DNA of 64,000 nt from a virus (IMGVR_UViG_3300015263_000627), one strand, 5' to 3'. Shown: positions 3,049 through 46,287, counted from the stretch's first letter. The notes: generated by a model not told the origin, from the sequence alone. Made by a program: numbers and translations.

Positions 3049-3588
3049 ATGACTATACTACCAATTTTAACCAACGACATACTAAAGTTGACGAAACCCT
3101 CACAAGAATGGGATTTCAACAATCCACCTATGGATGCGGTTGAATTAGCTCGAAATCTAGCCGACACCATGCTCGATTCTAAGGGTCTTGGATTAGCAGC
3201 TATTCAAGTCGATATTCCCTATCGAGTTTTCGTAATGCGAGGATTAGTCAACGAAAAAGGGGCGTTGGAAATTTTTTGTTTTTTCAACCCCCGGATCGTC
3301 ATGCCATCAACCGAGCAAGTAAAGCTGGAAGAAGGGTGTCTTTCTTTTCCCGGTCTTGTTGTTGAAATAAAACGCCCCCGCGATGTTAGGTTCCGATTTA
3401 CCTTACCTAATGGGGAAACAGATACTAAATTATTCACCGGTATGACCGCCCGAGTGATTCAGCATGAAATGGATCATCTGGATGGTCTTTTGTTTTATAA
3501 CAGAGCCAACAAATACAAGCGCAACAAAGCCTTCAAAGAACAGGCTAAATTCATGAAATTTCAAGCTTCAAGAAAGGAACTTGTATAA
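3049..3588 (+). CDS. def: Peptide deformylase
   Basis: GLGLAAIQ, EEGCLS, QHEMDHLDG motifs. Confidence 0.97.
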   Translation: MTILPILTNDILKLTKPSQEWDFNNPPMDAVELARNLADTMLDSKGLGLAAIQVDIPYRVFVMRGLVNEKGALEIFCFFNPRIVMPSTEQVKLEEGCLSFPGLVVEIKRPRDVRFRFTLPNGETDTKLFTGMTARVIQHEMDHLDGLLFYNRANKYKRNKAFKEQAKFMKFQASRKELV

Positions 3589-3845
3589 TGAAGAAAAATG
3601 ATTTGAGGGAAGTAAATAATCTAATTTCTCAATTAGCAATGGCTGAAAATGATTTACGAATGGTGAACGAAGGAATGTCTAAAAAAGGCGATGAATTTTT
3701 ATTATCCGATTCGTTTGGTATTCCTTCATCTATGGTGCATTATGCGCCCCATAATGAATTTGGGGAATTTATTATCCCTTATATTAAAAAAAATATTAAT
3801 AAATTGAAGGAAGAATTACACAAATTTGGTATAGAGGATGCCTAA
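3588..3845 (+). CDS. Hypothetical protein
   Basis: TAATG coupling to def. Confidence 0.6.
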   Translation: MKKNDLREVNNLISQLAMAENDLRMVNEGMSKKGDEFLLSDSFGIPSSMVHYAPHNEFGEFIIPYIKKNINKLKEELHKFGIEDA

Positions 3846-3956
3846 ATAGAGTTTGATATACTATGATAATCGTGAAGGTCTAACTAAAAGAGGTATTCAA
3901 GTGCAATATGTCAAAAAGACACCTGTTAGACCTAATGCCTTTCCTACAAAAGTCGC

Positions 3957-4184
3957 ATGTCCACCTCCGAGATAAAGGAATATAAAATGATATTACATGA
4001 TCCAAATTATGATCTTGTGGAATATCATCCTTTACCTAAAAAAAGGGGACAACAATGTGGCAAATGTGGAATGAAATTTGAGTATGATAAAAGTTATGGT
4101 TATTGGTGTGCTGAAATTGATTGTCCAATGGGTTATGGATCATCCCCTGTTTTTTCGGAGGAAAATAATCCATCTGGATGTTAA
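3957..4184 (+). CDS. Hypothetical Cys-rich protein
   Basis: CGKC...C...CP possible zinc ligands. Confidence 0.45.
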   Translation: MSTSEIKEYKMILHDPNYDLVEYHPLPKKRGQQCGKCGMKFEYDKSYGYWCAEIDCPMGYGSSPVFSEENNPSGC

Positions 4185-4249
4185 CATGAAACTGCACACT
4201 AACTCTATCAATGTTAGTGTGCAGTTTAATAATAAGAATGGAGTAAATT

Positions 4250-5119
4250 ATGCCACAAATCAAAGTCCCTATGTCAGAGTTACAAAAAGACAAAATATTT
4301 CTAGCTACCCCTTGTTATGGTGGAATGTGTGGAGGAATGTTTGCTAAATCTGTTGCTGATTTATCTTCATTATGCACTCGATTTCAAATTCCCCTTCAAA
4401 TTTATTTTCTATTCAATGAAAGTTTGATTACTCGCGCTCGAAATTATGCATGTGATGAATTTATGCGTTCGGGAGCTTCTCATTTGGTTTTTATTGATGC
4501 TGATATTGGATTTGATGCTAATGATGTTATTGGAATGGTTGCTCTCCAGCGTCAAAATTCTTCCTATGATATTATGGGTGGACCATATCCCAAGAAAACT
4601 ATTTCATGGGAAAAAATAAAAATAGCTGTTGATAAAGGAAAAGCTGATAATAATCCCAATGATCTTGAAAAATATGTTGGAGATTATGTTTTCAATCCCA
4701 AAAGCGGACAAAATCAAATTTCTATTGTTGATCCTGTTGAAGTGTTAGAAGTTGGAACTGGATTTATGTCGATTCAAAGATCAGCTATGCAAAAATTTGT
4801 CGAACAGTATCCACAATATATGTATCGTCCTGATCATGTTCGAACTCAACATTTTGATGGTAGTCGAGAAATCATGCAATTTTTTCAAGCTGAAATCGAC
4901 TCAAAATCCAAACGATATTTATCAGAAGATTATTGGTTTTGTCAAAAAGCACAGGCAATAAATCTCCGCACATGGTTATGTCCATGGATAAAATTAAACC
5001 ATACTGGAACCTATGTGTTTGGGGGATCATTATTTGATTTGGCTCAAATTCAGGCTCCCGCTACGGCTGATGCTGCGTTATTGAAGAAAAATAATGAAAA
5101 TATAAAACCTACCAATTAA
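4250..5119 (+). CDS. GT-A fold glycosyltransferase-like protein
   Basis: FLATPCYGG, SLITRARN, FIDADIGF (DxD), VGTGFM, LSEDYWFC, LNHTG. Confidence 0.7.
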   Translation: MPQIKVPMSELQKDKIFLATPCYGGMCGGMFAKSVADLSSLCTRFQIPLQIYFLFNESLITRARNYACDEFMRSGASHLVFIDADIGFDANDVIGMVALQRQNSSYDIMGGPYPKKTISWEKIKIAVDKGKADNNPNDLEKYVGDYVFNPKSGQNQISIVDPVEVLEVGTGFMSIQRSAMQKFVEQYPQYMYRPDHVRTQHFDGSREIMQFFQAEIDSKSKRYLSEDYWFCQKAQAINLRTWLCPWIKLNHTGTYVFGGSLFDLAQIQAPATADAALLKKNNENIKPTN

Positions 5120-5126
5120 AGAACGC

Positions 5127-5856: not shown

Positions 5857-5859
5857 AAA

Positions 5860-7787: not shown

Positions 7788-8046
7788 AAATGAAACTGAT
7801 AAACTTTTGGCAGCATTCGCAGGCTTGTTTTTGCTTCCATTTATATTGTTCTTTGCTACGATAATTGGAACCGTAGCAGGAGCAATTGGAGGATGGGCTG
7901 TTGGTTTATTCTATGGGGATACTATTCTTTTTATTCTGAACCAATTGGGTGTCCATGGAGTAACCATGGGACAATTCGGAGCCTTTTTGGGATTTGTGGG
8001 GGGATTTTTCAAATCAGTATATATGTTTAGAAATCCTAAAAAATAA
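7780..8046 (+). CDS. Hypothetical membrane protein
   Basis: Gly-rich hydrophobic helices. Confidence 0.6.
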   Translation: MAENETDKLLAAFAGLFLLPFILFFATIIGTVAGAIGGWAVGLFYGDTILFILNQLGVHGVTMGQFGAFLGFVGGFFKSVYMFRNPKK

Positions 8047-8555
8047 TGAATTTTCGAAAAGCTAATCTGGACGATATTGACGATATCCTTCGTTTGGAAA
8101 GACTTGGTTTTGGAGAGCATCGATTTTCTCGTAATGCCCTTCGAAACCAGTTGAAATCCAAGAGCGTTGATGTTTTGGTAGCCGAAGATTTCAAAACAAT
8201 AGGATTTACTAAACAATATAGTAATTCTAAATTTAGTATTGTTCCATCCAAGGTTTTTAGAAGTGAAAAATGTATTGGATATGTAAGTGTTTTCTATAGG
8301 TCCAATAGTTCCAAGGCTCTAATAGCCTCAATTACGGTTGATCCAGCTTATAGACATAAAGGAATAGCCACAAAATTGATGGAAAAAGCTATAATATATG
8401 CTTATGACCGGGATATTACCCAAATCAAGCTACAGGTAGCCAAAACCAATACCAATGCTATAAAGATAAATACTAAGTTCGATTTCAAAATTGAAAAAAC
8501 ATTATCGAATTATTATGGTAAAGGAAAATCTGCTTACCTGATGGTCAAGAATTAG
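8046..8555 (+). CDS. GNAT (RimI-like) N-acetyltransferase
   Basis: IASITVDPAYRHKGIATKLM acetyl-CoA motif; LQVAKTNTNA; NYYG. Confidence 0.85.
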   Translation: MNFRKANLDDIDDILRLERLGFGEHRFSRNALRNQLKSKSVDVLVAEDFKTIGFTKQYSNSKFSIVPSKVFRSEKCIGYVSVFYRSNSSKALIASITVDPAYRHKGIATKLMEKAIIYAYDRDITQIKLQVAKTNTNAIKINTKFDFKIEKTLSNYYGKGKSAYLMVKN

Positions 8556-9534: not shown

Positions 9535-9945
9535 ATGAATGAAACTGACAGTTTATTTCGAGGTTATGGAATTGAAGTTATCCTACCTGACGATCAAGCA
9601 TTTCTAAAAATCCGAGAAACATTACAACGTATTGGCGTTGCTTCCCGTAAAGATAAGACTTTGTATCAATCTGCTCATATTCTACATAAACAGGGACAAT
9701 ATGCGATTCTACATTTTAAGGAATTGTTTGCTCTGGATGGAAAGAAAACCGATTTTTCGGAAGATGATCGCCAACGTCGAAACGCGATTGCGTCACTTTT
9801 GGAAGAATGGAATTTGGTCAAGATTAAAAACCCTGACCTAGTAATTGACAAGGCTCCGATGAGTCATATCAAGGTAGTCCGTTACAAGGAAAAAAACGAT
9901 TGGGTTTTAAAGTGTAAATATTCCGTAGGAAGGAAAAAAGTCTGA
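9535..9945 (+). CDS. regA: Translational repressor RegA
   Basis: FLKIRETLQRIGVAS, YQSAHILHKQGQYAILHFKELFALDG, RRNAIASLLEEW. Confidence 0.96.
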   Translation: MNETDSLFRGYGIEVILPDDQAFLKIRETLQRIGVASRKDKTLYQSAHILHKQGQYAILHFKELFALDGKKTDFSEDDRQRRNAIASLLEEWNLVKIKNPDLVIDKAPMSHIKVVRYKEKNDWVLKCKYSVGRKKV

Positions 9946-10012
9946 TGGTCTTGGGATCGCCACGGCTTCTAATCTGTATGGCAGACGGGTTCGAATCCCG
10001 TATCAGACGCCA
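9940..10012 (+). tRNA. Atypical tRNA / tRNA-like RNA (loop CUUCUAAU; degenerate Arg-UCU or 4-nt UCUA anticodon)
   Basis: 7-bp acceptor GTCTGAT/ATCAGAC + G + CCA; T arm ACGGG-TTCGAAT-CCCGT; reduced D arm; 8-nt anticodon loop. Confidence 0.65.
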
Positions 10013-10110
10013 ATTTAAGAGGACAATAAGATGATCAGATAGATGCATTAGGGCACCACCTTTTACTCTCCAAAATAAATTCAACCAAATTTATAACAAA
10101 GGAGAGTAAA

Positions 10111-10500
10111 ATGAAAGATTATCTTAAAACAAAATGTTGTTCACTGGCAGAAGAAGCCAAAATTATTCGCAGACTTGAACGTTCCCGTATCAAAAAGGGA
10201 CGGCGAGCCGCGTCATTAGGTAAAACCGAGGCGGCAAATTATCACTATTCAGTCTTATTCGGATTGCGCGACCATCGCACTAGAGATGTGCGACAGGAAT
10301 CTCGTCATTCGAATTTGGCGTATGGTTTTATAAAAGGTCGCGAATATAATGAAATTGAACAGTCGGCTTTCAAACAACCAAATTGGAAACGTGTTCAAAC
10401 ATTAGTGGAAAAATATGGCGAGGGGGATAAAACAATCCTACTCGAAAATTTTGCTACGTGGAAAAACAAGGCTATCGTTTCATTCGAAAAGAAAGCCTAA
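10111..10500 (+). CDS. Conserved basic hypothetical phage protein
   Basis: GGAG RBS; LKTKCCSLAEEAKIIR, VRQESRHSNLAYGFIKGR. Confidence 0.75.
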   Translation: MKDYLKTKCCSLAEEAKIIRRLERSRIKKGRRAASLGKTEAANYHYSVLFGLRDHRTRDVRQESRHSNLAYGFIKGREYNEIEQSAFKQPNWKRVQTLVEKYGEGDKTILLENFATWKNKAIVSFEKKA

Positions 10501-10508
10501 AATAAAAA

Positions 10509-10540
10509 CAGGTCCGGGGTTTATTCCGGACCTGTACTTT
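10509..10540. terminator. Intrinsic terminator between convergent units
   Basis: CAGGTCCGG/CCGGACCTG stem with A-run before and T-run after. Confidence 0.75.
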
Positions 10541-10594
10541 CACCCGCATTTAGACAATCAGGAGGTGATACAAAAACGCAGGTGAGGGGCGAGC

Positions 10595-10798
10595 TTAGGA
10601 AGCCATTCGGTAATAATTTACCCGATTGCCGTTCGAACCCCGCGTATTCAGGTAAATGGTATTACCCTCATTACGAAGATCACGAACTGCCGCCGAAACG
10701 CTATTCAAGCCGGTCTTACGCTGGCATTGCGTAACCGGATGGTTCTTACTATCGCTTAGAAGCCTGAATAGCTTGTCGATCTTAGTCAGCTTAGTCAT
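10595..10798 (-). CDS. Small winged-HTH DNA-binding protein
   Basis: SVSAAVRDLRNEGNTI helix plus wing; GGAG RBS; own promoter. Confidence 0.6.
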   Translation of the reverse strand: MTKLTKIDKLFRLLSDSKNHPVTQCQRKTGLNSVSAAVRDLRNEGNTIYLNTRGSNGNRVNYYRMAS

Positions 10799-10856
10799 TA
10801 TTAATTTCTCCTTGTTTTAAATTCGCCGCGAATAAAGATTCACAAGCCTATTGTCT

Positions 10857-10885
10857 ATAGTATCACACCTTGGGATCAGAGTCAA
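10857..10885 (-). promoter_or_regulatory. sigma70-type promoter
   Basis: TTGACT-17 nt-TACTAT on minus strand. Confidence 0.75.
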
Positions 10886-11039
10886 GCGTTTTTTTCACGT
10901 CCCTTACATATATTTTCCACAAATTTTTATGGACATATTTATAAGGTCCCAATAATTGTTTTACGTTGACTAGGCGATAAGCTTCATCATCCGGACGGCG
11001 TAATATTTCACCGGTTTTTATATTTTGAATTGTTTTCAT

Positions 11040-11489
11040 TTAGTTATCAAACCAAAATACAATGCGATAATTATCGAAAAATTTATCATCATTTTCATCA
11101 TATTTTTCTACCCCGAAATAATAACTTTCGGGATATTTTTCTCTATATCCATTTTCTTCGGCAAGTTGATATTCAGTTTCCAAGAATATTTTAGAAGCCT
11201 CTTTCAATGGCAACCATGAATGAGAATGACCATCCCCACCCCATTGAGCAACCATTTCTTGGGTAGTTTCGGAAATATCAAGGGGAAGTCCACGCGCCGC
11301 AGGTCCGTTTCCTCTTACTCCTGCCAATGCAGCAAAACGTTCATAATTCCGCCCTCTGGCTACGGGAGAATCCCAATCAAATTCGCCTTTTTTGGCATAT
11401 AACCGATGATGACCAAGGAAGGTATCAATCCCCACCCATTTGCCGTCTTTTCGGCGTTTTTCTAAAACTAGATGAATATCGCAACTCAT
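11040..11489 (-). CDS. Conserved hypothetical phage protein
   Basis: MSCDIH, RNYERFAALAGVR, DGHSHSWL, YRIVFWFDN. Confidence 0.75.
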   Translation of the reverse strand: MSCDIHLVLEKRRKDGKWVGIDTFLGHHRLYAKKGEFDWDSPVARGRNYERFAALAGVRGNGPAARGLPLDISETTQEMVAQWGGDGHSHSWLPLKEASKIFLETEYQLAEENGYREKYPESYYFGVEKYDENDDKFFDNYRIVFWFDN

Positions 11490-11490
11490 T

Positions 11491-11721
11491 TTATCCCTCT
11501 ACTGTCTCTATTGGTTGCCATGTAATCTCTCCCGTAGAACGATTCCAATATGCCTGTTCGAGAACTTTTTCATCAGGTATATAATTACCCGTAAGAGGAT
11601 CAGTTGTCCAATGCCTAATAATTCGCCAACGCAAGGCAGTTGTTCTTTCTATAATAGCACTTTCTTCCGGTTTATTCATTACGATTTTCATATTCTTTTG
11701 CCCGTTCTTCAAGATCATCAA
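11491..11721 (-). CDS. Hypothetical protein
   Basis: LRW...VLEQAYW...WQPIETV; operon packing. Confidence 0.55.
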   Translation of the reverse strand: MMILKNGQKNMKIVMNKPEESAIIERTTALRWRIIRHWTTDPLTGNYIPDEKVLEQAYWNRSTGEITWQPIETVEG

Positions 11722-12265
11722 TAGAACAATCGAAGATCATTTCTTCATTTTCAGGATTAGCGTTATCCCAAAAATTGGTAGAAAATGCTTTCACCCGCAA
11801 TTCATTTTGATTGCCTTTATAAATTTCATAGCGATATTCGATATCGCCCGGGGCTACATCATAAACCTCTTGACCCCTTCCGGAATGAAGCAAACGAACA
11901 CCCCCACCCGATAAATCGGAATCCGGATAAGGATTTTCTAATTTTACAATTGCTTCACCAATATTTCCTCCGAAACGATTAGCGTTCGATTTTTTTAAAT
12001 TTTCGGGTTTTCTTGTTTTCTCTATTCCCTCAATAAATTGATCATCACACCACCAAGGTAATTTATTGGCAGTTATAAATGCAGCCGCAAATTCGTCCGC
12101 TTCATAACGGGGCAAATGCCATGCAAAGATTAGAGCTTGTTTTATTGATTTTGCGGCTCTGGTGGGATAATTATCCGAATGTTTATAAACGTGGTAAGTG
12201 CGACCATCGCCCATACCCCATTCAGGATCGTTATCGATAAATGAATAAACTCCGCGTGTGGACAT
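11672..12265 (-). CDS. Conserved hypothetical phage early protein
   Basis: MSTRGVYSF...YKHSDNYP...DIEYRYEI. Confidence 0.7.
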   Translation of the reverse strand: MSTRGVYSFIDNDPEWGMGDGRTYHVYKHSDNYPTRAAKSIKQALIFAWHLPRYEADEFAAAFITANKLPWWCDDQFIEGIEKTRKPENLKKSNANRFGGNIGEAIVKLENPYPDSDLSGGGVRLLHSGRGQEVYDVAPGDIEYRYEIYKGNQNELRVKAFSTNFWDNANPENEEMIFDCSIDDLEERAKEYENRNE

Positions 12266-12372
12266 TTCAACCCCTATACATATTGATTGCTGTTCCAATT
12301 AGAAAGCACAATGATCCAGCAATATAAAACCAATTTGCCATAATTCTTCCTGTGCCGAATCCAGTTTGTTAT

Positions 12373-12476
12373 ATCGGCTTTAGTGCACGGATTTACCCCA
12401 CACCGCTGGAAATAACGTCAGGTGTTTAGGAGGCGACCTGACGCGCCTATTTCGCGGACTGAGCTTAAGTGCCGAC
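12373..12476 (-). ncRNA. Candidate structured RNA / attenuator
   Basis: GC-rich intergenic stretch with nested stems GUCGGC/GCCGAU, CCGC/GCGG, GAAAUA/UAUUUC, CGUCAGG/CCUGACG. Confidence 0.4.
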
Positions 12477-12488
12477 CACGCCTAACTT

Positions 12489-12968
12489 TTACGCTACTCC
12501 TGCCAGCTTTTGCTTCGCTGCCCGTAACTGGGCGCGAATATCATCCATTGCCTTTTTCTTTTCAACAACCGGGGCGGTAGCCTTGACCGGCTTTACCTTT
12601 GGCTTGATTTCAACAATGACTTGCTTGACCGGCTTTTCTACCGTTTTCTTGGCTTTGTTCTTGCTGCCCTTGGGACGACCACGCTTCCTCGGAACCTTAT
12701 TCAATTCCGCTTCAGCTTGGGCGATCTTGCCACGCAAAAACTCCACCATTCCCGCTTGCGTAATGTGCTGCACCAAATGCTTCATGGCATCCAGCTTAGA
12801 CATTACATGGGGAAGGTGGACAAACCGAAATTCGGTATGACCTTTGGTTGCAACTTGGAATAGCTGCAACTTTTCTGTCCGACCCGACACGTTCAACTTA
12901 TACGTGCCATTGATGCAGGACACACCCGCGACCTTTATCTGTCGGGGCTTCTTTGTTTTATCGCTCAT
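12489..12968 (-). CDS. Lys-rich protein with AT-hook motif
   Basis: RKRGRPKG, histone-like C-terminal tail; first gene after an early promoter. Confidence 0.7.
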   Translation of the reverse strand: MSDKTKKPRQIKVAGVSCINGTYKLNVSGRTEKLQLFQVATKGHTEFRFVHLPHVMSKLDAMKHLVQHITQAGMVEFLRGKIAQAEAELNKVPRKRGRPKGSKNKAKKTVEKPVKQVIVEIKPKVKPVKATAPVVEKKKAMDDIRAQLRAAKQKLAGVA

Positions 12969-13010
12969 TATATAAAGTTTTCCTCATAGGTTGTAGTCAC
13001 CATGGTTCTA

Positions 13011-13071
13011 AGTATGCCTGAAAACTGGTTCAAAGTCAAGTTTTTTATTTTTCAATGATATCAATGGGTTA
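13011..13071 (-). promoter_or_regulatory. Early promoter with upstream IHF-consensus site
   Basis: TTGACT-17-CATACT on minus strand; TATCAATGGGTTA at 13059-13071. Confidence 0.75.
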
Positions 13072-13165
13072 TAGAGCCATGCTTTTTTTGTAATAGAGCT
13101 ATGCGTTTAGGACATACCAATCAGGGTTGTATTTGAAATAATTATAAAATTTCTGATTATCCGGC

Positions 13166-13226
13166 TAACTCATTGATATCATTATGAAACAAAATTGTTG
13201 ACTTAGGGGTGGGGCTATGGTAGGCT
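13166..13226 (+). promoter_or_regulatory. Early promoter with upstream IHF-consensus site
   Basis: TAACTCATTGATA at 13166; TTGACT-17-TAGGCT at 13198-13226. Confidence 0.7.
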
Positions 13227-13234
13227 TTATTCAC

Positions 13235-13408
13235 ATGAAAATAATGTCCTTCAATGAACGATTCACCCGCGCCTTTCTTACGGCGATTTTATATATGTTA
13301 GCTATACATTATATAGCTCCAAATAATGGATCATTCAATGCTGTAGTGCTTTATATAACTTTTATGTTTTTGAGCGCAATGCAATATTTCGAAGGGAAAG
13401 TGTCTTGA
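13235..13408 (+). CDS. Small membrane protein
   Basis: Two hydrophobic helices; first gene after promoter. Confidence 0.5.
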   Translation: MKIMSFNERFTRAFLTAILYMLAIHYIAPNNGSFNAVVLYITFMFLSAMQYFEGKVS

Positions 13409-13611
13409 CTGAAACGCCAAAATTATGCACTACCTATGTCCGTCCCGCGCAAGCGAACAATTCATGGGAATATGGAATCGTCGCGCCGCTAGGTGATGGC
13501 AGGGAGCGATTTATTCCGCGCGGTTGGGCGAGCAAGGATATTGCTGATGCCCGCGCCGCCGATCTTGCGGCTACCGGCGATGAATATTTAGAAAGTCTAA
13601 AGAGGCTATAA
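13405..13611 (+). CDS. Hypothetical early protein
   Basis: TTG start with AGGGA RBS; coupled. Confidence 0.55.
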   Translation: MTETPKLCTTYVRPAQANNSWEYGIVAPLGDGRERFIPRGWASKDIADARAADLAATGDEYLESLKRL

Positions 13612-13865
13612 TGACTCAAAAACCTGAATTGTTAGGATACATTGTGTCCGATACCCCGTATAACCGGGAATTTTTTCCATATCTAATTGGGCGCGGCTTT
13701 GCGGCTCCCCCGGGATATGAACAAATTTTGCCCTATCGGTCCATCAAAACCGAAGGGTTTTATGCTATCCCCAAGGCGGTGGAACCGGAGAAATCCGATC
13801 CAATTTTAGAAACCATTGACCCATCTTGGGCTGACGATGGTTCCGATCCGGGAAAATCCGAATAA
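13611..13865 (+). CDS. Hypothetical early protein
   Basis: TAATG coupling. Confidence 0.55.
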   Translation: MTQKPELLGYIVSDTPYNREFFPYLIGRGFAAPPGYEQILPYRSIKTEGFYAIPKAVEPEKSDPILETIDPSWADDGSDPGKSE

Positions 13866-13922
13866 CCCCTTGATTTTCCATCGTTCTTAGTTCTTGACTC
13901 GAACCCGAATCTATGGTAAAAT
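13863..13922 (+). promoter_or_regulatory. Early promoter module with IHF-consensus site
   Basis: TAACCCCTTGATTTT...TTCTTAGTTCTTGACT-17-TAAAAT. Confidence 0.75.
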
Positions 13923-13930
13923 TATAAACA

Positions 13931-14134
13931 ATGTCGAGATATTCTGACCGCTTCGAAGAAATCTATATGCCGATCCCGGCAGGCACAAAAGTCCGGGACC
14001 ATCATGGCGACCTTGGCATTATTGTTCGCTGTCTTTCCCCTAAAAACACAAAATACACTGTTCGCTTCGAAGATGGCGATGCTATTCGATTTGTGGGCGA
14101 TCTAACCGTTATATATGATAACGACAAATACTGA
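13931..14134 (+). CDS. Hypothetical early protein (SH3-like beta barrel possible)
   Basis: GTKVRD...GII...YTVRFEDG. Confidence 0.55.
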   Translation: MSRYSDRFEEIYMPIPAGTKVRDHHGDLGIIVRCLSPKNTKYTVRFEDGDAIRFVGDLTVIYDNDKY

Positions 14135-14379
14135 TGGAAACATTTATTTTCAAACGTTATCGAATTGTCCGCATTGATACAATGAACGGTAAACGGACAT
14201 TTTTATGGTCATATGACCATGAAGATGATGCCAAAGCTTGTCTAAATGACTACCAAAACGATCCGGATAAATTATCGTTTCATAGCTATGAAATGGTAGA
14301 TTCGGGGGTTCCATACGTTGAGATTGAATTGCTCGATATACCCCGATCCATCTTAGCTAAATTTGAGGAAAAGAAATGA
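14134..14379 (+). CDS. Hypothetical early protein
   Basis: Coupled start/stop. Confidence 0.6.
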   Translation: METFIFKRYRIVRIDTMNGKRTFLWSYDHEDDAKACLNDYQNDPDKLSFHSYEMVDSGVPYVEIELLDIPRSILAKFEEKK

Positions 14380-14996
14380 ACGTCGAACCTGTTGAAACAA
14401 AAACCGTTGGACTTTTTACCGTAAAGATATTTCCCGATTATGGAAATGATCAAGAATGTCCCCTTGATGGTTGGGATAATGATATCAAATTTGTAACATT
14501 TGAAAGACGTTCTACTCTCTCAAATTATCACGATTTTGATAAACCTGACGATGTTGAAAAGTGGGCGAAAAAGAATCGTTATGAAGTCTTTCCGCTTTTC
14601 AAGTATGAACATGGCTTAGTTTCCTATTCAACTAGTTCATTCCGGGGGCGAGCGCATCATGCCGAATGGGATTCAGGACCGGTAGGGTTTGTTCTGATCA
14701 AGAAATCGGCATATCGCAAGCCTGCTAAACGTGCCGAGATTGCCGAAAGCATTTGCCAAAGTGTGACCAAATGGTGCAACGGTGAGTATTACGGTTACAC
14801 TATTGAACAGGACGATGAAATTATTGAATCCTGTTGGGGATTTGAAGATTCCGATTATTGTCTTTCGGAAGCTATGAATTTGGCTAAATTTCTTACCAAA
14901 GAACCAAAAATGTGTGATGAATGTGGAGTCAATAGAGCCGATCCACCCTCAAAACTTTGTCCCGGTTGCCAAGCTTATAAGGAACATACCCAATGA
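14376..14996 (+). CDS. Conserved hypothetical early protein
   Basis: YEHGLVSYS, WDSGPVG, WCNGEYYGY, ESCWGF; C-terminal CxxC-CxxC. Confidence 0.7.
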   Translation: MNVEPVETKTVGLFTVKIFPDYGNDQECPLDGWDNDIKFVTFERRSTLSNYHDFDKPDDVEKWAKKNRYEVFPLFKYEHGLVSYSTSSFRGRAHHAEWDSGPVGFVLIKKSAYRKPAKRAEIAESICQSVTKWCNGEYYGYTIEQDDEIIESCWGFEDSDYCLSEAMNLAKFLTKEPKMCDECGVNRADPPSKLCPGCQAYKEHTQ

Positions 14997-15244
14997 ACAA
15001 TTTTGATATATTTTTTGTAATATTTTATATAATTTTGGGAGTTCCAGCTATGGCTTGGGTAATGATTCAATCTTTTCAACAAACTTTGACTTGGGGTATT
15101 CTCTTATATTCTATCGTAATTGGTCCGTTTATCGGATTACCCATTCTTCTTCTTGTGTTTTTAGTCTTAGGTATAATAAAACTTTTCTCCTATGAATTTT
15201 GGAATAAACCGGTATTCAAAAAAAGGAAAAAATATGCTCAATAA
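14993..15244 (+). CDS. Hypothetical membrane protein
   Basis: Two TM helices, basic tail. Confidence 0.6.
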   Translation: MNNFDIFFVIFYIILGVPAMAWVMIQSFQQTLTWGILLYSIVIGPFIGLPILLLVFLVLGIIKLFSYEFWNKPVFKKRKKYAQ

Positions 15245-15392
15245 GGAAGCCGTCGAAAATTTTATCAAGAATGATCGTCAATGGACTCGTCCTATGCGGA
15301 TAGCTCATGCGAAATATCAGCTATCCATCGCCAAAAACGCCGATGATAAGGAATTTTGGACGGAAATTCTGAATCGTAATGAAGGGGAATGA
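15234..15392 (+). CDS. Hypothetical protein
   Basis: AGGA RBS; coupled. Confidence 0.5.
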   Translation: MLNKEAVENFIKNDRQWTRPMRIAHAKYQLSIAKNADDKEFWTEILNRNEGE

Positions 15393-15393
15393 A

Positions 15394-15876
15394 ATGAGTC
15401 ATACAGTCTCTAATCACGACGAAATCATCGATTCACGCGATGTTATCGATCAGCTTGAAACGTTGGAAGATCAGTATCAAGAATTGAAGGATGCTGTTCA
15501 AGATTCATCCGATCAAATAGATACTATCGATGATGAAGATAATGAATATGATAAAAAAGAACTTATAGAAAGTTATGAAAGTGCCAAGATATCCTTAGAA
15601 CTTTGGGAGCAGGATAATCTTGCTGAATTGAAGGTTTTGCGAGATTTTGCCGAAGAAGGTGAATCATTGTCGCGAGATTGGCGGCATGGCGAAACCCTGA
15701 TTCGTGAGGATTATTGGGTCGATTATGTGAAACAAATGCTTGAGGATTGTGGCGACCTTCCCCGCGATCTTCCGGACTATATCGAAATTGATTGGGATAA
15801 AACCGCCAATAATATTGCGATGGATTATTCTACATTGGAATTTGATGGGGTAACTTACTATATTAGGAGTTCGTGA
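15394..15876 (+). CDS. Highly acidic ArdA-like antirestriction (DNA-mimic) protein
   Basis: Asp/Glu-rich; LPDYIEIDWDKTANNIAMDY resembles the ArdA C-terminal YIDYEAIARDL motif. Confidence 0.6.
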   Translation: MSHTVSNHDEIIDSRDVIDQLETLEDQYQELKDAVQDSSDQIDTIDDEDNEYDKKELIESYESAKISLELWEQDNLAELKVLRDFAEEGESLSRDWRHGETLIREDYWVDYVKQMLEDCGDLPRDLPDYIEIDWDKTANNIAMDYSTLEFDGVTYYIRSS

Positions 15877-16028
15877 TGAATAAAGCAAAAAAGATTGTCG
15901 AAACCATTCTTGACGATATGACAGATCGTGGTGGATTGTCGGGAGTATGGGATATGATTGATGATGATATCCAAGAGGAAATCAAGGAAACTTGGGTCAA
16001 ATTAGTCGAAAAAATATTGAAAAAATGA
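15876..16028 (+). CDS. Small acidic hypothetical protein (50 aa)
   Basis: Hand-translated; TGATG coupling. Confidence 0.6.
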   Translation: MNKAKKIVETILDDMTDRGGLSGVWDMIDDDIQEEIKETWVKLVEKILKK

Positions 16029-16198
16029 CCGATAAATACGTTGAAGTATTACGAAAAATAGCCGAGCAAAAACTACCGTCCGAAATGGATGATGGCGGCG
16101 AGGGTGCTGACTATGAATATGCCTATGAAGCTATTGTAAATCTTGCTCGTTATATTTTGAAAGATGATTCCAAAAATGAATCGCGAAAAGATATATGA
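16025..16198 (+). CDS. Hypothetical protein
   Basis: ATGA coupling. Confidence 0.5.
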   Translation: MTDKYVEVLRKIAEQKLPSEMDDGGEGADYEYAYEAIVNLARYILKDDSKNESRKDI

Positions 16199-16505
16199 AC
16201 AGTATAAAGTAAAAATGGGTTTTATAGCTTCCCCCGGCAAGTTCGAGGGCGAGCCGGTATATGCTCCATATTTCTATGACATTTCCCTATATGATTGTGT
16301 AGAAATGTATAATGAGGATTGTTTTTCGGAGGTTATTATCAAAATTAAACCGGAAGATCGTGAAATGTTTCCGGAAATAACTGCCGTAGCCGAATATGTT
16401 AGTGTGCAGGAAAATGGTGATGGATTTGTAAAAATCCAACTATTAACTGAACAGGATTTTGAAAAAATCCAAGCCTATTATGAATTATGGGATAGTGATT
16501 TTTAA
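16164..16505 (+). CDS. Acidic hypothetical protein
   Basis: SPGKFEGEPVYAPYFY. Confidence 0.6.
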   Translation: MIPKMNREKIYEQYKVKMGFIASPGKFEGEPVYAPYFYDISLYDCVEMYNEDCFSEVIIKIKPEDREMFPEITAVAEYVSVQENGDGFVKIQLLTEQDFEKIQAYYELWDSDF

Positions 16506-17053
16506 GAGCCGTAATTACAAAGCCATCCTTTATGATGGTTATATTTACCTTTTGCAACATGAGTAAGAGCCGCTTGAGAAAGATTGTATTCTCTTGAAAA
16601 TTTACTTAAATTACGAATTTTAAATACTTTATTTTGAGGACTAATTAATATATAATTTTTAGATCGAAGATTGGCGTTTTTAGCAGCAATATTTGGTAAT
16701 TTCATTGGATTGTTTTTATACATTCTTTCTTTTACATGAGGTAAATTATTAGGATTACGTTTATCAAACATATATGGTCCTGCTCCACCACTTCCTTCTT
16801 CTATCCGGAGGTTTGCCCATTGATCAGATTCGACAATATTCCAGACTTTAGAGTAAAAAGTACCAGCTTCTTTTAATTCTTCGGGGGTATTATAAGTTCC
16901 AACAATATAGGTGGATATATCAGTACCATGAATTTTTATATGATTTTTCCAATATTTTCCTGATCCATTATATTGGTAAGGATTATGTTTAGTATAACCC
17001 AAATATTTCAATCTAGTTTTATTATGTTGTTTGATATAAAGATAAAACATCAA
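16502..17053 (-). CDS. GIY-YIG (Seg-like) homing endonuclease with NUMOD1-like tail
   Basis: FYLYIKQH...KYLGYT, YNGSGKYW; C-terminal NLSKFSREYNLS...HHKGW. Confidence 0.85.
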   Translation of the reverse strand: MMFYLYIKQHNKTRLKYLGYTKHNPYQYNGSGKYWKNHIKIHGTDISTYIVGTYNTPEELKEAGTFYSKVWNIVESDQWANLRIEEGSGGAGPYMFDKRNPNNLPHVKERMYKNNPMKLPNIAAKNANLRSKNYILISPQNKVFKIRNLSKFSREYNLSQAALTHVAKGKYNHHKGWLCNYGS

Positions 17054-17352
17054 TTTTTGAATCTTCGTTTAGCATTTGTATAAAATTGTTTAAGAGAAGC
17101 CATACTTGCACCACATACCTTATTGTTTTCATCTAATCGAACAATTAATCGAGCTACCTCTAAATCTGTAAGAGTTTCAGGTTTAGGTAAATTAGCTAAT
17201 TGTGGACAAGAATACATACTATCCGGGGGAGCAACCACGATGTATTTGTCCTGCACGATAATTTGGGGAGGATTCATAAATTTAGCAAGACTTTCACAAC
17301 CACCTAACATCGATCCTAAACCAATAATTAATAATATTCTAAACATGATCAT
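17050..17352 (-). CDS. o-spanin (Rz1-like lipoprotein)
   Basis: Lipobox LGGC, Pro-rich, overlaps i-spanin end. Confidence 0.8.
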   Translation of the reverse strand: MIMFRILLIIGLGSMLGGCESLAKFMNPPQIIVQDKYIVVAPPDSMYSCPQLANLPKPETLTDLEVARLIVRLDENNKVCGASMASLKQFYTNAKRRFKN

Positions 17353-17759
17353 TTTCCTAATTGTCTAATTGTTTCTTTTAATATTTGAGAAGATTCTCGA
17401 TTTGCCTTAGCCGCTTCGGTAGAATCAAGAAATGCATCCAATTTATCATTTTTAGTATTAATATTTTGAATAGTTGCTGCTAATTCGGCGGATAATCTCT
17501 TTTCTGCCTCAACCAAATATTTGGTATCTTCGGCAAATTGTTTTTGGTTTTTTAAAACCTGTTCTAATTGTGCTTTTTGATCTTTTAGTAATTGGGTTTG
17601 AGAAGCATTATGGGAAATTGACCAATACAGACCAGAAATCAAAGCGATAACTCCAATTCCCAATAGTAAATATCCTGAAAGTTCAGCCCAAATACTCCCA
17701 AGACCGGTCCAAACTGCTATACCTGCACCTTTAATAACCTTCAAAAAAGACATTGACAA
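17349..17759 (-). CDS. i-spanin (Rz-like)
   Basis: N-terminal TM helix then coiled coil; upstream of lipoprotein; late-type CTAAATA upstream. Confidence 0.75.
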   Translation of the reverse strand: MSMSFLKVIKGAGIAVWTGLGSIWAELSGYLLLGIGVIALISGLYWSISHNASQTQLLKDQKAQLEQVLKNQKQFAEDTKYLVEAEKRLSAELAATIQNINTKNDKLDAFLDSTEAAKANRESSQILKETIRQLGK

Positions 17760-17781
17760 CCTCCACCAAATGATATATTAT
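17753..17781 (+). promoter_or_regulatory. sigma70-type promoter for deacetylase operon
   Basis: TTGACA-17-TATTAT. Confidence 0.7.
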
Positions 17782-17806
17782 ATTTAGGACAACGGAGAAT
17801 ATAAAA

Positions 17807-18511
17807 ATGAAACTGACTACCCTATTTACTCTTTTTCTTATGATAGCAACTCCAACCTTGGCGGCTGAATGTATTCCGTCCCGGGTTGCTGGTCCTAATC
17901 CTATGGATAAGGTAGGCGAGGAATATGGTAAAACTGTTTCAAGTTTAAAAGATCATCAAGTTATTTTAACATTTGATGATGGTCCAAGTCCGGGAAATAC
18001 CCAAAGAGTTTTGGAAATTTTGAAAAATAATTGTATTTCGGCAGTATTTTTTGTTATTGGAGAAAAAGCACAACGGCATCAAGAGTTAGTCCGGATGATG
18101 GCTAATTATGGTCATATTGTTGGTTCTCATTCTTGGAGCCATCCCCAACCGTTCAATCGATTTTCCAATGTTGTAACAGCATCAGAAATAGATAATGGAG
18201 CCAGTATTGTTCATCAACTTGTGCCGAATAATGACCGATCATTTTTTCGTTATCCGGGATTTGGACACAATTCTTTTACCGAACATTATACTGAACGACA
18301 AGGTTTAACTGTATGGGGAGCCAATATTGATCCTAAAGATTGGAAAGAACCGGGAACAGAAACTTTAGTTCAACGCATTCTTTCGCAGCTATCTAAATTA
18401 CACCGAGGAATTATAGTTCTTCATGAAAATCATACAACTACAGTAGCAGCTTTACCATCTATTATAAAAAGCTTGCGTGAGAATGGTTATGAAATAGTGG
18501 GGATTTTTTGA
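17807..18511 (+). CDS. Exported polysaccharide deacetylase (NodB/CE4 family)
   Basis: Signal peptide; TFDDGP, HSWSHP, FRYPG, DPKDW, IIVLHE. Confidence 0.93.
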   Translation: MKLTTLFTLFLMIATPTLAAECIPSRVAGPNPMDKVGEEYGKTVSSLKDHQVILTFDDGPSPGNTQRVLEILKNNCISAVFFVIGEKAQRHQELVRMMANYGHIVGSHSWSHPQPFNRFSNVVTASEIDNGASIVHQLVPNNDRSFFRYPGFGHNSFTEHYTERQGLTVWGANIDPKDWKEPGTETLVQRILSQLSKLHRGIIVLHENHTTTVAALPSIIKSLRENGYEIVGIF

Positions 18512-18750
18512 TCTATCTTCTAGCATTTTTGGCAATGTTTGCTTTGGATTTTGTATGGGCATATTATACAAAGTCCATTCAAGATAATGCTATTATGATG
18601 GCAGGAATAACTGCCATGCTTATCCTACTTTTGAATAGTGCGGTTACTTTGAGCTATGTTGATGATCAATGGGCGATCATTCCAGCAGCTTTAGGGGCAT
18701 TTTTAGGCACTATTTCCGCCATGAAACTACATGGACCATCAAAAAGCTAA
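18508..18750 (+). CDS. Small multi-pass membrane protein
   Basis: Three hydrophobic helices. Confidence 0.65.
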   Translation: MIYLLAFLAMFALDFVWAYYTKSIQDNAIMMAGITAMLILLLNSAVTLSYVDDQWAIIPAALGAFLGTISAMKLHGPSKS

Positions 18751-18761
18751 ATATTAAAAAG

Positions 18762-19371: not shown

Positions 19372-19420
19372 AAAGGTCTTGACAATCCCCTCTAAATACA
19401 TTATACTACTACCATATACC

Positions 19421-20123: not shown

Positions 20124-20147
20124 TTTATAATAACCAAATAATACTAT

Positions 20148-20173: not shown

Positions 20174-20175
20174 AC

Positions 20176-42895: not shown

Positions 42896-43088
42896 AATAC
42901 CTTCAAACCTGAAAGATGCTCATGATATTCTAATCATGAAATGTGCAGCTACTTTAGCTGATGGTCGAATTGGGTGGATTAAAAATGTAAGACGACTTAT
43001 TCATTTGCTTGAAGTTTATAATCCGGCTCTTTCATATCAATATGAAGATGTAAAAAAATTGTATGAACCAAAAAATCGTTCAAGATGA
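42882..43088 (+). CDS. Hypothetical protein
   Basis: Coupled. Confidence 0.45.
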   Translation: MKKPKIPSNLKDAHDILIMKCAATLADGRIGWIKNVRRLIHLLEVYNPALSYQYEDVKKLYEPKNRSR

Positions 43089-43698
43089 AGCAAACGTAAG
43101 ACGATTGATTGAAGCCCTCCCGGACGATGCCCCGGGGGTAGCTTTTGATATTGGAGCTAACTTTGGTATATACACGAAAATTCTAGCAACTAAATTTCAG
43201 GATGTATATGCTTTTGAACCTGATCCAAGCAATATGTTTGTTTTACAGGAAAATATAAAAGAACCCAATGTTCATTTTGTGCGAGCCGCATTGGGAAGAA
43301 ATCCAGCCGGAATGGTAAATCTTTATCGTTGTTGGAATCCCGGAGGAAGCACAATCAATGAAGAATGTCCAAGATTTGCAGGATGGGGTCATACATGGGA
43401 TAATTTCATATCGGTGCCGGAAACTACCTTGGACACGTTTACTAAATCCTATATTCCGTGGAACAATCTCAAATTCATCAAGTGTGATGTTGAAGGGGCT
43501 GAAACTTTCCTGTTCGAACATGGAAAGGATACCTTACTAAATAATCGATTGACTATGGTTTTGGAAGTGCATCAAACAGTCAATTTTGCTCGCCTTTACC
43601 AATTATTCAAGGAAGTGGGATATCAAGTATATGATATATTTCATCAACCCGTTTCCGAATTAACCTATGATGCATATTATATAGTGACCAATGAGTGA
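43063..43698 (+). CDS. FkbM-family methyltransferase
   Basis: FDIGANFG, AFEPD, FIKCDVEGAE. Confidence 0.9.
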   Translation: MNQKIVQDEANVRRLIEALPDDAPGVAFDIGANFGIYTKILATKFQDVYAFEPDPSNMFVLQENIKEPNVHFVRAALGRNPAGMVNLYRCWNPGGSTINEECPRFAGWGHTWDNFISVPETTLDTFTKSYIPWNNLKFIKCDVEGAETFLFEHGKDTLLNNRLTMVLEVHQTVNFARLYQLFKEVGYQVYDIFHQPVSELTYDAYYIVTNE

Positions 43699-44299
43699 AG
43701 AAAACGTAAAAAATTATATAGAAGATTTACCTGATAACCAACCCGGGGCAGCGTTGGATATTGGAGCCTGTATTGGACAATATACCGGCTTGTTGGCAAA
43801 AAAATTTGAAATGGTGTATGCGGTTGAAGCTGACCTTTTGAATGTCAGTCGTTTGACCGAGAATATACGAAACATCGAAAATGTTACAATCATTCCCAAA
43901 GCTATGGCGGCTAATGATGGTCATGTGAAATTATTTACAGCCCATCATCCCGGGTGTCATACTATTGTGGAAAAGGAAGAACATTTAAAAAAATGGGGAT
44001 TTTCTCTCGAAAGACATAGGGTGGTTCCAGCAACTACTTTGAATACCATTTATAAAAGATACAAGAATATAAAATTCATCAAATGTGACATAGAAGGCGG
44101 GGAAGATTACATTTTTTACGAGGCTAAAGAATTGTTGACTTCAACCAAGCTAACTGTTATACTTGAAACACATGTAAGTATCGATCATAAGAAATTATAT
44201 ACCTTTTATAAAGATATGGGATATTCCATTTACAGCCTAGACAAAATGGAACCAGTAGATAATTTTCTCCATGAACAACATTATTTATTGAGGAATTAA
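43691..44299 (+). CDS. FkbM-family methyltransferase (tandem paralog)
   Basis: LDIGACIG, AVEAD, FIKCDIEGGE. Confidence 0.9.
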   Translation: MSEENVKNYIEDLPDNQPGAALDIGACIGQYTGLLAKKFEMVYAVEADLLNVSRLTENIRNIENVTIIPKAMAANDGHVKLFTAHHPGCHTIVEKEEHLKKWGFSLERHRVVPATTLNTIYKRYKNIKFIKCDIEGGEDYIFYEAKELLTSTKLTVILETHVSIDHKKLYTFYKDMGYSIYSLDKMEPVDNFLHEQHYLLRN

Positions 44300-44529
44300 T
44301 GGCAGACGTTTTCAAAGAGGGAATTGAAACATCACGTTTTTATTCAGATAGCGGCGATAAGGAAGCCGTGGTAAAAAGAGATGCTTATGGAATGTATTTT
44401 ATCGAGTTCTATAATCAGGGAAATATGATAGATATGACGGAATATCCGAAACTAACCTTCAATACAGTCGAGGATATTGCCGAGGATTATGTAAGTAATG
44501 GAAAAGCGCGTCATGAATCTGTTGAGTAA
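44299..44529 (+). CDS. Conserved small hypothetical protein
   Basis: VEDIAEDYV C-terminus. Confidence 0.6.
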   Translation: MADVFKEGIETSRFYSDSGDKEAVVKRDAYGMYFIEFYNQGNMIDMTEYPKLTFNTVEDIAEDYVSNGKARHESVE

Positions 44530-44989
44530 ATTTTTTTTAGTATTAATCCTGATTATCTTTGGATTGTTTGTTTTTAGTGTCTTTTTTGAATTTCGAAAAG
44601 CATATGCGGCTGATTACCGGGAGCCTGATGTAATAAATTATTATGATACTCTTAAACAACCTGATGATGATACAACAGGATGTTGTGGTCCCGGAGATGT
44701 TTATCAAGCAGATAAAACAGATAATTGTAATCCAAGTATAAGAAATGAAAGAATTGATTGCGCTCTTGTTGCGATCATTACCGATACAAGACCGGATGAG
44801 GTTCATTTGCAAAATGGGAGAATTATTAGGAGAGCGCATATTCCGGTAGGAACTAGAATACCGATTCCCCACAAAAAGATAAGGAAACACCCTATTCCTA
44901 ATCCAACCGAACATAATATAATTTTTGTGAAGTTTTATGAAGATGGGGGTTCTATTGTTTATTGTTGGGAGCCAGCAGTAGGTATATGA
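44513..44989 (+). CDS. Exported Cys-containing hypothetical protein
   Basis: Signal peptide; CCGPGD, PNPT, VYCWEP. Confidence 0.65.
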   Translation: MNLLSKFFLVLILIIFGLFVFSVFFEFRKAYAADYREPDVINYYDTLKQPDDDTTGCCGPGDVYQADKTDNCNPSIRNERIDCALVAIITDTRPDEVHLQNGRIIRRAHIPVGTRIPIPHKKIRKHPIPNPTEHNIIFVKFYEDGGSIVYCWEPAVGI

Positions 44990-45390
44990 TCAATCCATTA
45001 TTACAAACACTTCCGAAACGTCCTTATTCCAATTATATGGAATTTGTTCAGATTCGAAGGGAAAAACATGGAAAACATTTTGGAGTTGTTCTAAAATATC
45101 CATGTTTGTATTGTGATGGATATTATCGAATTGTAGCTCCATGGGAACGTCCCGACCCCGTTGAAGGATATAAGATGGCTGATCGAATTGATTGTCCTCA
45201 TTGTGCCAAAGGGGAATCCAATGAAGCAGTTTATAAAAAACATTATAAAAAGATCATTGCCGAATGGAAAGACAAATATCAAAAAGCCAAGGCGGCAAGA
45301 AAAATTCAAAAAAGCGCCTTTGTTAAGATCAAGAAATATCTATCGAAGGAAGAATTGAAGGCAGTTGGATTTGGTGTGTTATGGAAATGA
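44986..45390 (+). CDS. Hypothetical zinc-binding protein
   Basis: CLYC...CPHC. Confidence 0.55.
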   Translation: MINPLLQTLPKRPYSNYMEFVQIRREKHGKHFGVVLKYPCLYCDGYYRIVAPWERPDPVEGYKMADRIDCPHCAKGESNEAVYKKHYKKIIAEWKDKYQKAKAARKIQKSAFVKIKKYLSKEELKAVGFGVLWK

Positions 45391-45806
45391 AAGTAGAAGC
45401 ATTCCGGGGAAAATATAGATTCCTATCGAATTTCTATCCGGCTATTGTAAGTTATGGGGAAATTGATTTTCCAACCGTCGAACATGCTTATCAAGCTGCA
45501 AAGTTTGATACAGATGAAGAACGGAAACATATCGCTAATTTAGCGACCCCGGTTGAAGCTAAAAGAGCAGGAAAACGTGGTCATAAGGTAACCGATGAAA
45601 TAAAACTAGGAACTATGAAGCTTTTGGTGTTTCGTAAATTCTTTGCTCATGAAAATTTGAGACAAAGATTATTGGAAACAGGAGAAGCTGAATTGATTGA
45701 AGGAAATTATTGGCATGACACCTTTTGGGGTCAATGTCCAATTGGAACCGGAGAAAACCATCTTGGTCGTATTTTGATGAAAGTAAGAGAGGCTTTTAGG
45801 AATTGA
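45381..45806 (+). CDS. NADAR/YbiA family protein
   Basis: FLSNFY, FPTVEHAYQAAKF, LIEGN..HDTFWG, GENHLGRILMKVRE. Confidence 0.92.
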   Translation: MEMKVEAFRGKYRFLSNFYPAIVSYGEIDFPTVEHAYQAAKFDTDEERKHIANLATPVEAKRAGKRGHKVTDEIKLGTMKLLVFRKFFAHENLRQRLLETGEAELIEGNYWHDTFWGQCPIGTGENHLGRILMKVREAFRN

Positions 45807-45807
45807 A

Positions 45808-46287
45808 ATGAATCCAATACTATATCTACTAATGCGTAATGATATTCCGAGCATGAACCCGGGTAAGCTTGCGGCTCAAGCTGCACATGTTGCCAATGCT
45901 TTCGAATATGAGTTCAATAAGAGTGGTTCAGCCAAGAAAAATCTTGGTAAGCTGTATAAGGCATGGAAGAACCAAACCAAGCAAGGATTTGGAACAACCA
46001 TTTGTCTTGGAGCTAATGAAGATCAGTTTTTGTTTCAAGGAAGAAATCTTGGCAATGGTTATTTGAATGGATGTTTTTCGGGAGAGGTTTATGATCCGAC
46101 CTATCCTTGTTCTATTCCTATTGAAGTTGCGGATTATTTGAATCAATCTAATTTGTCTCAACAAATCATTTTTAAGGAAGATTCAGCTATTTTTCTTCGA
46201 AATGAATTGGTTGGAATGTATGTCTTTGGAGACAAGGAAAATGAGGAAGTTCAATTTCTTGTTGGTGGTTTGGAGTTATATCCATGA
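45808..46287 (+). CDS. Peptidyl-tRNA hydrolase 2 (Pth2)-like protein
   Basis: LYLLMRNDIPSMNPGKLAAQAAHVA matches Pth2 N-terminal motif; W...GFGTTICL; G...L.L end. Confidence 0.7.
   Translation: MNPILYLLMRNDIPSMNPGKLAAQAAHVANAFEYEFNKSGSAKKNLGKLYKAWKNQTKQGFGTTICLGANEDQFLFQGRNLGNGYLNGCFSGEVYDPTYPCSIPIEVADYLNQSNLSQQIIFKEDSAIFLRNELVGMYVFGDKENEEVQFLVGGLELYP

Follow-up and report, generated by a model that had tools for sequence, protein, structure and literature searches.

Six translation- and antitoxin-related elements dispersed over 43 kb of a T4-like phage genome are probably separate accessory genes

The DNA analyzed here, a 64,000-nt stretch of the virus IMGVR_UViG_3300015263_000627 (the window, from whose first letter positions are counted), raises the question of whether six dispersed elements form one system against host toxins of the GNAT (GCN5-related N-acetyltransferase) family that acetylate aminoacyl-tRNAs. 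These elements are a peptide deformylase (PDF) at 3049, a tRNA-like element at 9940, the C-terminal segment of a TacA antitoxin (the TacA tail) at 18762, a small GGQ protein derived from release factor 1 (RF1) at 22750, a ligase-fold nucleotidyltransferase of the DUF6267 family at 28900, and a Pth2-like hydrolase at 45808. The original prediction had joined them into a layered system against abortive infection. Five of the six items are real, and the remaining one resembles a tRNA but is missed by standard tRNA detection; the proposed system was not borne out, as the genes are neither adjacent nor cotranscribed and their distributions differ. We put a probability of about 0.75 on the reading that each of the six items is a separate gene, obtained at a different time and acting alone, in a T4-like phage that is rich in translation and counter-defense genes. 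No step would join the six into one pathway.

The phage, from marine sediment, is T4-like; its viral record has 181,157 bp and direct terminal repeats, and the window covers bases 111557-175556. Within the window, the genes run in the order sliding clamp, clamp loader, regA, and family-B DNA polymerase, with those for a RecA/UvsX-like protein and a DnaB-like helicase next. The six items are spread across 43 kb of this sequence and several transcription units. Separate strong sigma-70-like promoters were found for the genes encoding a polysaccharide deacetylase, a holin-like protein, and the TacA tail (promoter at 17753), for the Hsp20 gene (19379), and for the DNA polymerase and GGQ genes (20176), with a strong terminator at 20148, between the Hsp20 and polymerase genes. 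Directly upstream of the DUF6267 gene is a GC-rich hairpin with a T run after it, and the Pth2-like gene is located 15 kb beyond DUF6267, behind a gene for a NADAR-domain protein. T4-type TATAAATA late-promoter motifs were absent upstream of all six items.

The distribution of each gene was then compared among relatives. No IMG/VR polymerase shares more than 50% identity with the DNA polymerase of the phage; closer relatives in ENA/JGI assemblies share 71%, 55%, and 50% identity over the DUF6267 protein, and a complete 162-kb relative (G001) was found via the polymerase. DUF6267 was found in every one of these four relatives. An RF-1 gene follows the polymerase gene, with overlapping stop and start codons, only in the 71% relative; it is not behind the polymerase in the 55% and 50% relatives, is absent from the complete G001, and was found within 10 kb of the polymerase in 0 of 41 polymerase-related loci. 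Pth2-like genes that are 59-79% identical to that of the window occur on short metagenomic contigs, where synteny with a downstream ThyX gene or an upstream FkbM gene is kept, and are absent from G001. With a method that does recover it in the source genome, the TacA tail was found in none of the 33 further records that were checked (32 with Pth2, and G001), the small open reading frames (ORFs) of the nearest relatives not being open to direct inspection. In cultured phages, matches to the GGQ protein are mostly in mycobacteriophages and matches to Pth2 exclusively in phages of alphaproteobacteria, and the two lists barely overlap.

Among the 13 complete Pth2-bearing phage records in IMG/VR, RF-1 was present in seven, PDF in five, both in three, and TacA in none; under independence, RF-1 and PDF would be expected together in 2.7. 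An independent, patchy distribution of the genes had been named beforehand as evidence that would refute the original prediction, and such a distribution was found. Neither a shared neighborhood or operon nor co-occurrence among relatives, the marks of a single system, was seen for the six items, and their grouping is not beyond chance. Since each gene was gained and kept separately, the six are ordinary separate accessory genes rather than one anti-toxin machine.

The layered system against aminoacyl-tRNA-acetylating GNAT toxins would assign a role to every item: the TacA tail would block the toxin, Pth2 would strip acetylated aminoacyl-tRNA, the GGQ protein would free stalled ribosomes, the ligase and tRNA would replace damaged tRNA, and PDF would aid restart. 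It has in its favor that the TacA tail is real and cofolds with TacT1, that the genes are apparently under early-type promoters, and that overexpressed Pth is reported to counter TacT in two publications (PMC4942678, PMC9241777). We nevertheless consider both the system and this division of roles very improbable, given the dispersal over 43 kb, the different distribution of each gene among relatives, and the lack of a TacA tail in 33 of 33 other records. Further, PDF and DUF6267 are widespread in phages with nothing to suggest a link to TacT, the element at 9940-10012 is not a standard tRNA, and no paper was found in which modules pairing a GNAT toxin with a ribbon-helix-helix (RHH) antitoxin defend against phage.

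Several observations weigh against the reading as separate genes. RF-1 occurs in 7 of the 13 complete Pth2-bearing records, a proportion for which large phages without Pth2 provide no base rate; the RF-1 and Pth2 genes are 1.4 kb apart in one 328-kb record and approximately 4.5 kb apart in two others; and PDF and Pth2 occur together in a few jumbo phages of alphaproteobacteria. RF-1 and Pth2 may thus be functionally coupled. In a second alternative, the GGQ protein, Pth2, PDF, and about 25 tRNAs are a loose set that frees ribosomes and tRNAs for phage translation after destruction of host mRNA, independently of any defense, and the TacA tail stands apart from it. Some 25 ordinary tRNA genes (25 genome-wide matches to RF00005) are indeed located at both ends of the record, outside the window, half of the complete large phages with Pth2 also have RF-1, sometimes nearby, and the GGQ gene is translationally coupled to the DNA polymerase gene. 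A survey of translation genes in large phages (Iyer et al. 2021, PMC7824862) also proposed that PTH2 of jumbo phages aids in the rescue of jammed ribosomes. The phage resembles those in its archaeo-eukaryotic-type Pth2, bacterial release factor peptidyl-hydrolase domain, deformylase, and approximately 25 tRNAs, but it is a 181-kb T4-like phage rather than a jumbo phage, its Pth2 has 159 residues rather than about 115, and its release factor fragment lies directly behind the DNA polymerase. Against a functional set, the co-occurrence of RF-1 and PDF is that of independent assortment in large genomes (3 observed versus 2.7 expected), and close relatives retain one gene without the other. A loose set is therefore possible but, in our judgment, doubtful.

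Only the TacA tail, of the six items, points specifically to tRNA-acetylating GNAT toxins. It is a called gene at 18762-18950 on the plus strand, an orphan ORF of 62 residues with a GTG start that contains only the C-terminal toxin-neutralizing segment of TacA/DUF1778 antitoxins. The match to Pfam TacA1 (PF08681) reached 21.9 bits (cutoff, 21), with residues 40-75 of the long ORF matching profile positions 43-78 of 80. Profile positions 1-42 were unmatched and the called gene begins 9 residues before the matched segment, so that the RHH DNA-binding domain is absent. A longer reading from an ATG at 18669 is less favored: it would run across the holin-like gene, in a stretch where no coding signal is seen in frame 3, and the coding signal shifts to frame 3 only past the end of that gene. 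There is no toxin gene beside the TacA tail, the neighbors being the polysaccharide deacetylase gene, the holin-like ORF, and an ORF without known function.

The distance between regA and the polymerase gene, in which the TacA tail lies, is 10 kb here (9945-20228), compared with 2-3 kb in 27 related loci. The added sequence contains minus-strand ORFs of higher GC content, the polysaccharide deacetylase gene, the holin-like ORF, the TacA tail, and the Hsp20 gene. This interval is a hypervariable accessory region.

The TacA-like ORF could be a fortuitous similarity, or could regulate the phage's own GNAT rather than counter a host defense. The Pfam score barely exceeds its cutoff, pairwise E-values against the PDB are 0.1-0.3, and no homologues were found: a word-index search of 5.8 billion proteins returned only the TacA tail itself, and 50,697 phage records contained no match at E up to 1. 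A single GNAT is encoded by the genome, at 8046-8555 on the plus strand. We find both versions of this alternative unlikely. In a six-frame search of the whole 181-kb genome with PF08681, the TacA tail was the sole match (E 4.3e-5), and its four best PDB matches include three independent solved TacA chains (7ak7_C, 7zg6_A, and 7ak8_G) aligned to the same segment, of which 7ak8_G is the 39-residue neutralizing peptide of TacA1. The phage GNAT is located 10 kb from the TacA tail, and it was rejected as a TacT-type toxin: among solved structures it comes nearest to archaeal and eukaryotic N-alpha-acetyltransferases and RimI, giving it a RimI/Ard1-like character, and no TacT or AtaT chain was present among its 39 PDB matches.

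Cofolding of the TacA tail with Salmonella TacT1 gave a score of 0.77, a mark attained by 51 of 78 solved complexes and by 2 of 108 mismatched pairs, while the best of three controls scored 0.00. At least 90% of contacts agreed between runs, the partner pLDDT (predicted local distance difference test) was at least 69, and the interface comprised peptide residues 10-50, coinciding with the TacA-homologous segment. Because TacA-TacT complexes have already been solved, cofolding demonstrates that the peptide resembles a TacA tail to the model and is not proof of binding; the score may reflect memory of the solved structures, which would favor the fortuitous reading, although the position of the interface and the null controls speak against it.

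Since the TacA tail has neither an RHH domain nor a toxin partner, its likeliest role would be that of an early-expressed blocker of a host toxin. As modeled, it would bind and block a TacT/AtaT-type GNAT toxin of the host early in infection. For cyanophage S-CREM1, an annotated TacA has been put forward as a possible anti-toxin device (PMC9964418), and no paper was found that pairs DUF1778 with cyanophage. Like the TacA of S-CREM1 and the AdfN-type NADAR proteins that act against DarTG1 (PMC11825919), the TacA tail is a lone antitoxin-derived gene in a T4-like phage without a toxin partner. However, AdfN is an enzyme with tested activity, whereas the TacA tail is a predicted 62-residue binding fragment that lacks the RHH domain and has no homologues.

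The Pth2-like hydrolase (45808-46287, plus strand) is a protein of 159 residues with the alpha/beta fold of Pth2 and with insertions. It scored 25.9 bits against Pfam PTH2 (PF01981; cutoff, 23) and has 334 homologues, with PF01981 on most of those listed. K20, Q24, H27, and D96 are invariant across 42 family members and may correspond to the catalytic residues of archaeal Pth2. Its AlphaFold2 (AF2) model has a pLDDT of 94.5, and the top 11 Foldseek matches are all Pth2/Bit1 proteins (probability, 1.0; target-normalized TM score, 0.6-0.7). No match was found by sequence in the PDB. Judging by fold and motifs, the enzyme would hydrolyze peptidyl-tRNA or N-acyl-aminoacyl-tRNA off the ribosome, and N-acetyl-aminoacyl-tRNA is a substrate that Pth-type hydrolases could in principle remove. 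The phage would then counter GNAT toxins at two independent levels, with the TacA tail plugging the toxin and Pth2 stripping N-acetyl-aminoacyl-tRNA, a combination that we regard as quite unlikely.

An orphan NADAR-domain gene (45381-45806, plus strand; Pfam E 2.2e-24) ends 1 nt before the start of the Pth2-like gene. AdfN-type orphan NADAR antitoxins reverse the ADP-ribosylation of DNA by DarT1 (PMC11825919), and the NADAR protein of the window resembles this type. NADAR and Pth2 were rejected as a conserved pair, since none of 80 other Pth2 loci had a NADAR gene alongside. Position 45553, inside the NADAR gene, is a T in the window and a C in the whole-genome record, the sole mismatch in 64,000 bases. 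Farther downstream, a fusion of a cytidylyltransferase-like Nmnat domain with a Nudix domain (53138-54187, plus strand) adjoins an Nampt gene (54236-55651, plus strand), a pair that matches the NAD+ reconstitution pair of NARP2 (bioRxiv 10.1101/2024.02.11.579819). The NADAR gene and the Nampt/Nmnat pair indicate that the phage collects single-gene counter-defenses, a habit that the TacA tail fits.

Other genes surround this part of the window. Two tandem FkbM-type methyltransferase genes (43063-44299, plus strand) lie upstream of the NADAR and Pth2-like genes, and one FkbM gene is also found upstream of Pth2 in a soil-metagenome relative (L132). In four other viral contigs, a Nampt or Nmnat gene lies no more than 3 kb from a Pth2-like gene. 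An HNH endonuclease gene (46284-46796, plus strand) is directly 3' of the Pth2-like gene, and a SegE-like GIY-YIG homing endonuclease gene (55697-56419, minus strand) follows Nampt; these accessory genes are flanked by mobile endonucleases.

The GGQ protein (22750-23172, plus strand; 140 residues), proposed as a mini release factor, was established as the C-terminal half of RF1, with RF1 domain 3 and part of domain 4 (Pfam RF-1 domain, E 1.1e-17). It aligned to RF1 positions 213-337, scoring 64.8 bits against the full RF1 model (cutoff, 400). Domains 1 and 2 of class I release factors, which recognize the codon, are absent, and the C-terminal half of the protein aligns to RF1 domain 4 with the segment IRTYxF..V.DH kept. 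The nearest Atlas clusters are RF-1-domain proteins of approximately 130 residues that are 93-97% viral. Since the codon-reading domains are missing, release is probably codon independent. The fold and motifs suggest that the GGQ protein would hydrolyze peptidyl-tRNA on stalled ribosomes with no need of a stop codon, and it would be made together with the DNA polymerase, whose stop codon overlaps the GGQ start codon (TAATG).

Other GGQ proteins that rescue ribosomes without need of a stop codon are ArfB/ICT1 and PrfH, which the GGQ protein resembles in being small and without codon-reading domains. In ArfB, the GGQ domain is joined through a linker to a basic C-terminal helix, which senses the unoccupied mRNA channel. 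The C-terminal tail of ArfB is lacking in the GGQ protein, and identity with ArfB (NF006718) was rejected at 18 bits (cutoff, 100; residues 10-38 only). Identity with PrfH was likewise rejected (53.3 bits; cutoff, 166.65), and the genome has no RtcB, the ligase that partners PrfH in the PrfH-RtcB2 ribosome repair pair. A DPBB_1 (lytic transglycosylase-like) gene at 23156-23575 on the plus strand follows the GGQ gene, as it does in the 71% relative. In the 328-kb viral record (L051), a 172-residue release factor fragment (1132-1650) lies upstream of the Pth2-like gene (2983-3495); it consists of the end of a PCRF domain and an RF-1 domain and is 40% identical to the GGQ protein.

The PDF gene (3049-3588, plus strand; 179 residues) is fully conventional. 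The protein scored 130.8 bits against Pfam PF01327 (cutoff, 22.8; E 4.4e-38) and 122.1 bits against TIGR00079 (cutoff, 103.95), and all three metal-binding and catalytic motifs (G-x-G-x-AA-x-Q, EGC-x-S, and HE-x-x-H) are present, as GLGLAAIQ, EGCLS, and HEMDH. By profile and motif, the product is a canonical peptide deformylase, which would remove the N-formyl group from nascent proteins. PDF, of which 112 phage records spanning many host groups have a homologue, is a common phage auxiliary gene. Together with the phage GNAT, it suggests that protein N termini are reshaped by the phage.

The DUF6267 gene (28900-30885, plus strand; Pfam E 3.7e-81) encodes 661 residues, with a ligase-fold nucleotidyltransferase (about residues 51-425) fused to a cytidylyltransferase-like domain (about residues 427-616). 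The motif I lysine (KxDG) is present as MKFDG, and K50, D52, and G53 are invariant in the family alignment. The AF2 model of the N-terminal domain has a pLDDT of 93.6. The nearest solved folds, as predicted, are RNA and DNA ligases: VIA Z-scores were 8.9 for Naegleria RNA ligase, 7.6 for T4 Rnl2, 7.5 for Trl1, 7.0 for Rnl1, and 6.0-6.6 for DNA ligases. Foldseek probabilities reached 0.96 with E-values no better than 5e-3, and there was thus no Foldseek match at 1e-3 or better. By sequence, the PDB returned only interferon matches, which were rejected as spurious, and no paper found mentions DUF6267.

DUF6267 resembles the T4 Pnkp and Rnl1 pair that repairs tRNA against the PrrC anticodon nuclease in having a covalent nucleotidyltransferase fold whose nearest solved relatives are RNA ligases, T4 Rnl1, T4 Rnl2, and Trl1 among them. 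It differs from that pair in that the genome has no PNK3P-type phosphatase or RtcB and in that DUF6267, a core gene of marine T4-like phages, is placed within the replication module. A further difference is its fusion to a cytidylyltransferase-like domain, and DNA ligases are nearly as close. DUF6267 is kept, as a conserved gene pair, in cyanomyophages and in pelagiphage HTVC008M, and it is a core gene of the phage's lineage. A search of the genome for ATP- or NAD-dependent DNA ligase, Rnl2, PNK3P-type phosphatase (the marker of Pnkp), RtcB, and CCA-adding enzyme found none of them, and DUF6267 is the genome's sole ligase-like gene. For the predicted ligase, a role in joining generally is a better fit than dedicated tRNA repair; the fusion would be a lineage-core, RNA-ligase-like joiner of nicks or ends, in RNA or DNA, within the replication module.

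The element at 9940-10012 (plus strand) was described as an atypical tRNA, of which the tRNA-like part stood. Its acceptor stem (a perfect 7 bp), T arm (loop TTCGAAT), G73, and CCA are all canonical; its D and anticodon arms are aberrant, with a possible 8-nt anticodon loop CUUCUAAU (CU-UCUA-AU). As a tRNA it failed every standard search: ARAGORN found no tRNAs over the window, Rfam gave no match in the window at the gathering score, and the element is not among the genome's 25 RF00005 matches. Its best Rfam match was tRNA-Sec at 18.3 bits (E 0.7; gathering score, 47), and the z-score of its minimum free energy was -1.6.

The tRNA-like element overlaps the regA stop codon. Starting 18 nt past its CCA is a leader preceded by a Shine-Dalgarno sequence (ATG ATC AGA TAG A). 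In the +1 frame of this leader, the reading is CIRAPPFTLQ..., with an end that overlaps the Shine-Dalgarno sequence of a 129-residue ORF without assigned function (10111-10500), possibly a membrane protein. That ORF was rejected as a hidden Pth2 (hhalign probability, 0.15%; no usable Atlas match). The arrangement at 9940-10500 looks like a translational switch. Given the overlap with regA, the leader, and the ORF, the element is therefore part of a local cassette, together with a short leader and an ORF without known function.

Several studies provided metagenomes, of marine sediment, sediment, and mangrove, that contain pieces identical to the window. In the covered parts of the window, to which interpretation was confined, contigs from four sequencing runs equaled the window wherever they overlapped it, except in the length of the G run at 20147. 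This run lies in the stem of the strong terminator between the Hsp20 and polymerase genes, and its length differs between metagenomes by +1, +3, or +4 G. A PADLOC scan of six proteins gave zero matches.

The proposed system would have been a new multilayer counter-defense, and the evidence splits it into known single-gene kinds. Read as separate genes, the Pth2-like hydrolase, the RF1 half, PDF, NADAR, and the NAD+ salvage genes are an example of piecemeal entry into a T4-like genome. The picture of DUF6267 is clearer, as a lineage-core protein with an RNA-ligase-like fold and the only ligase-like gene of the genome. If the phage did counter GNAT toxins both at the toxin and at the acetylated aminoacyl-tRNA, GNAT-RHH toxin-antitoxin modules would be real anti-phage defenses in sediment bacteria. 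Of all the parts, only the RHH-less TacA tail merits testing at the bench, as a clean candidate orphan antitoxin with which to ask whether GNAT-RHH modules restrict phages.

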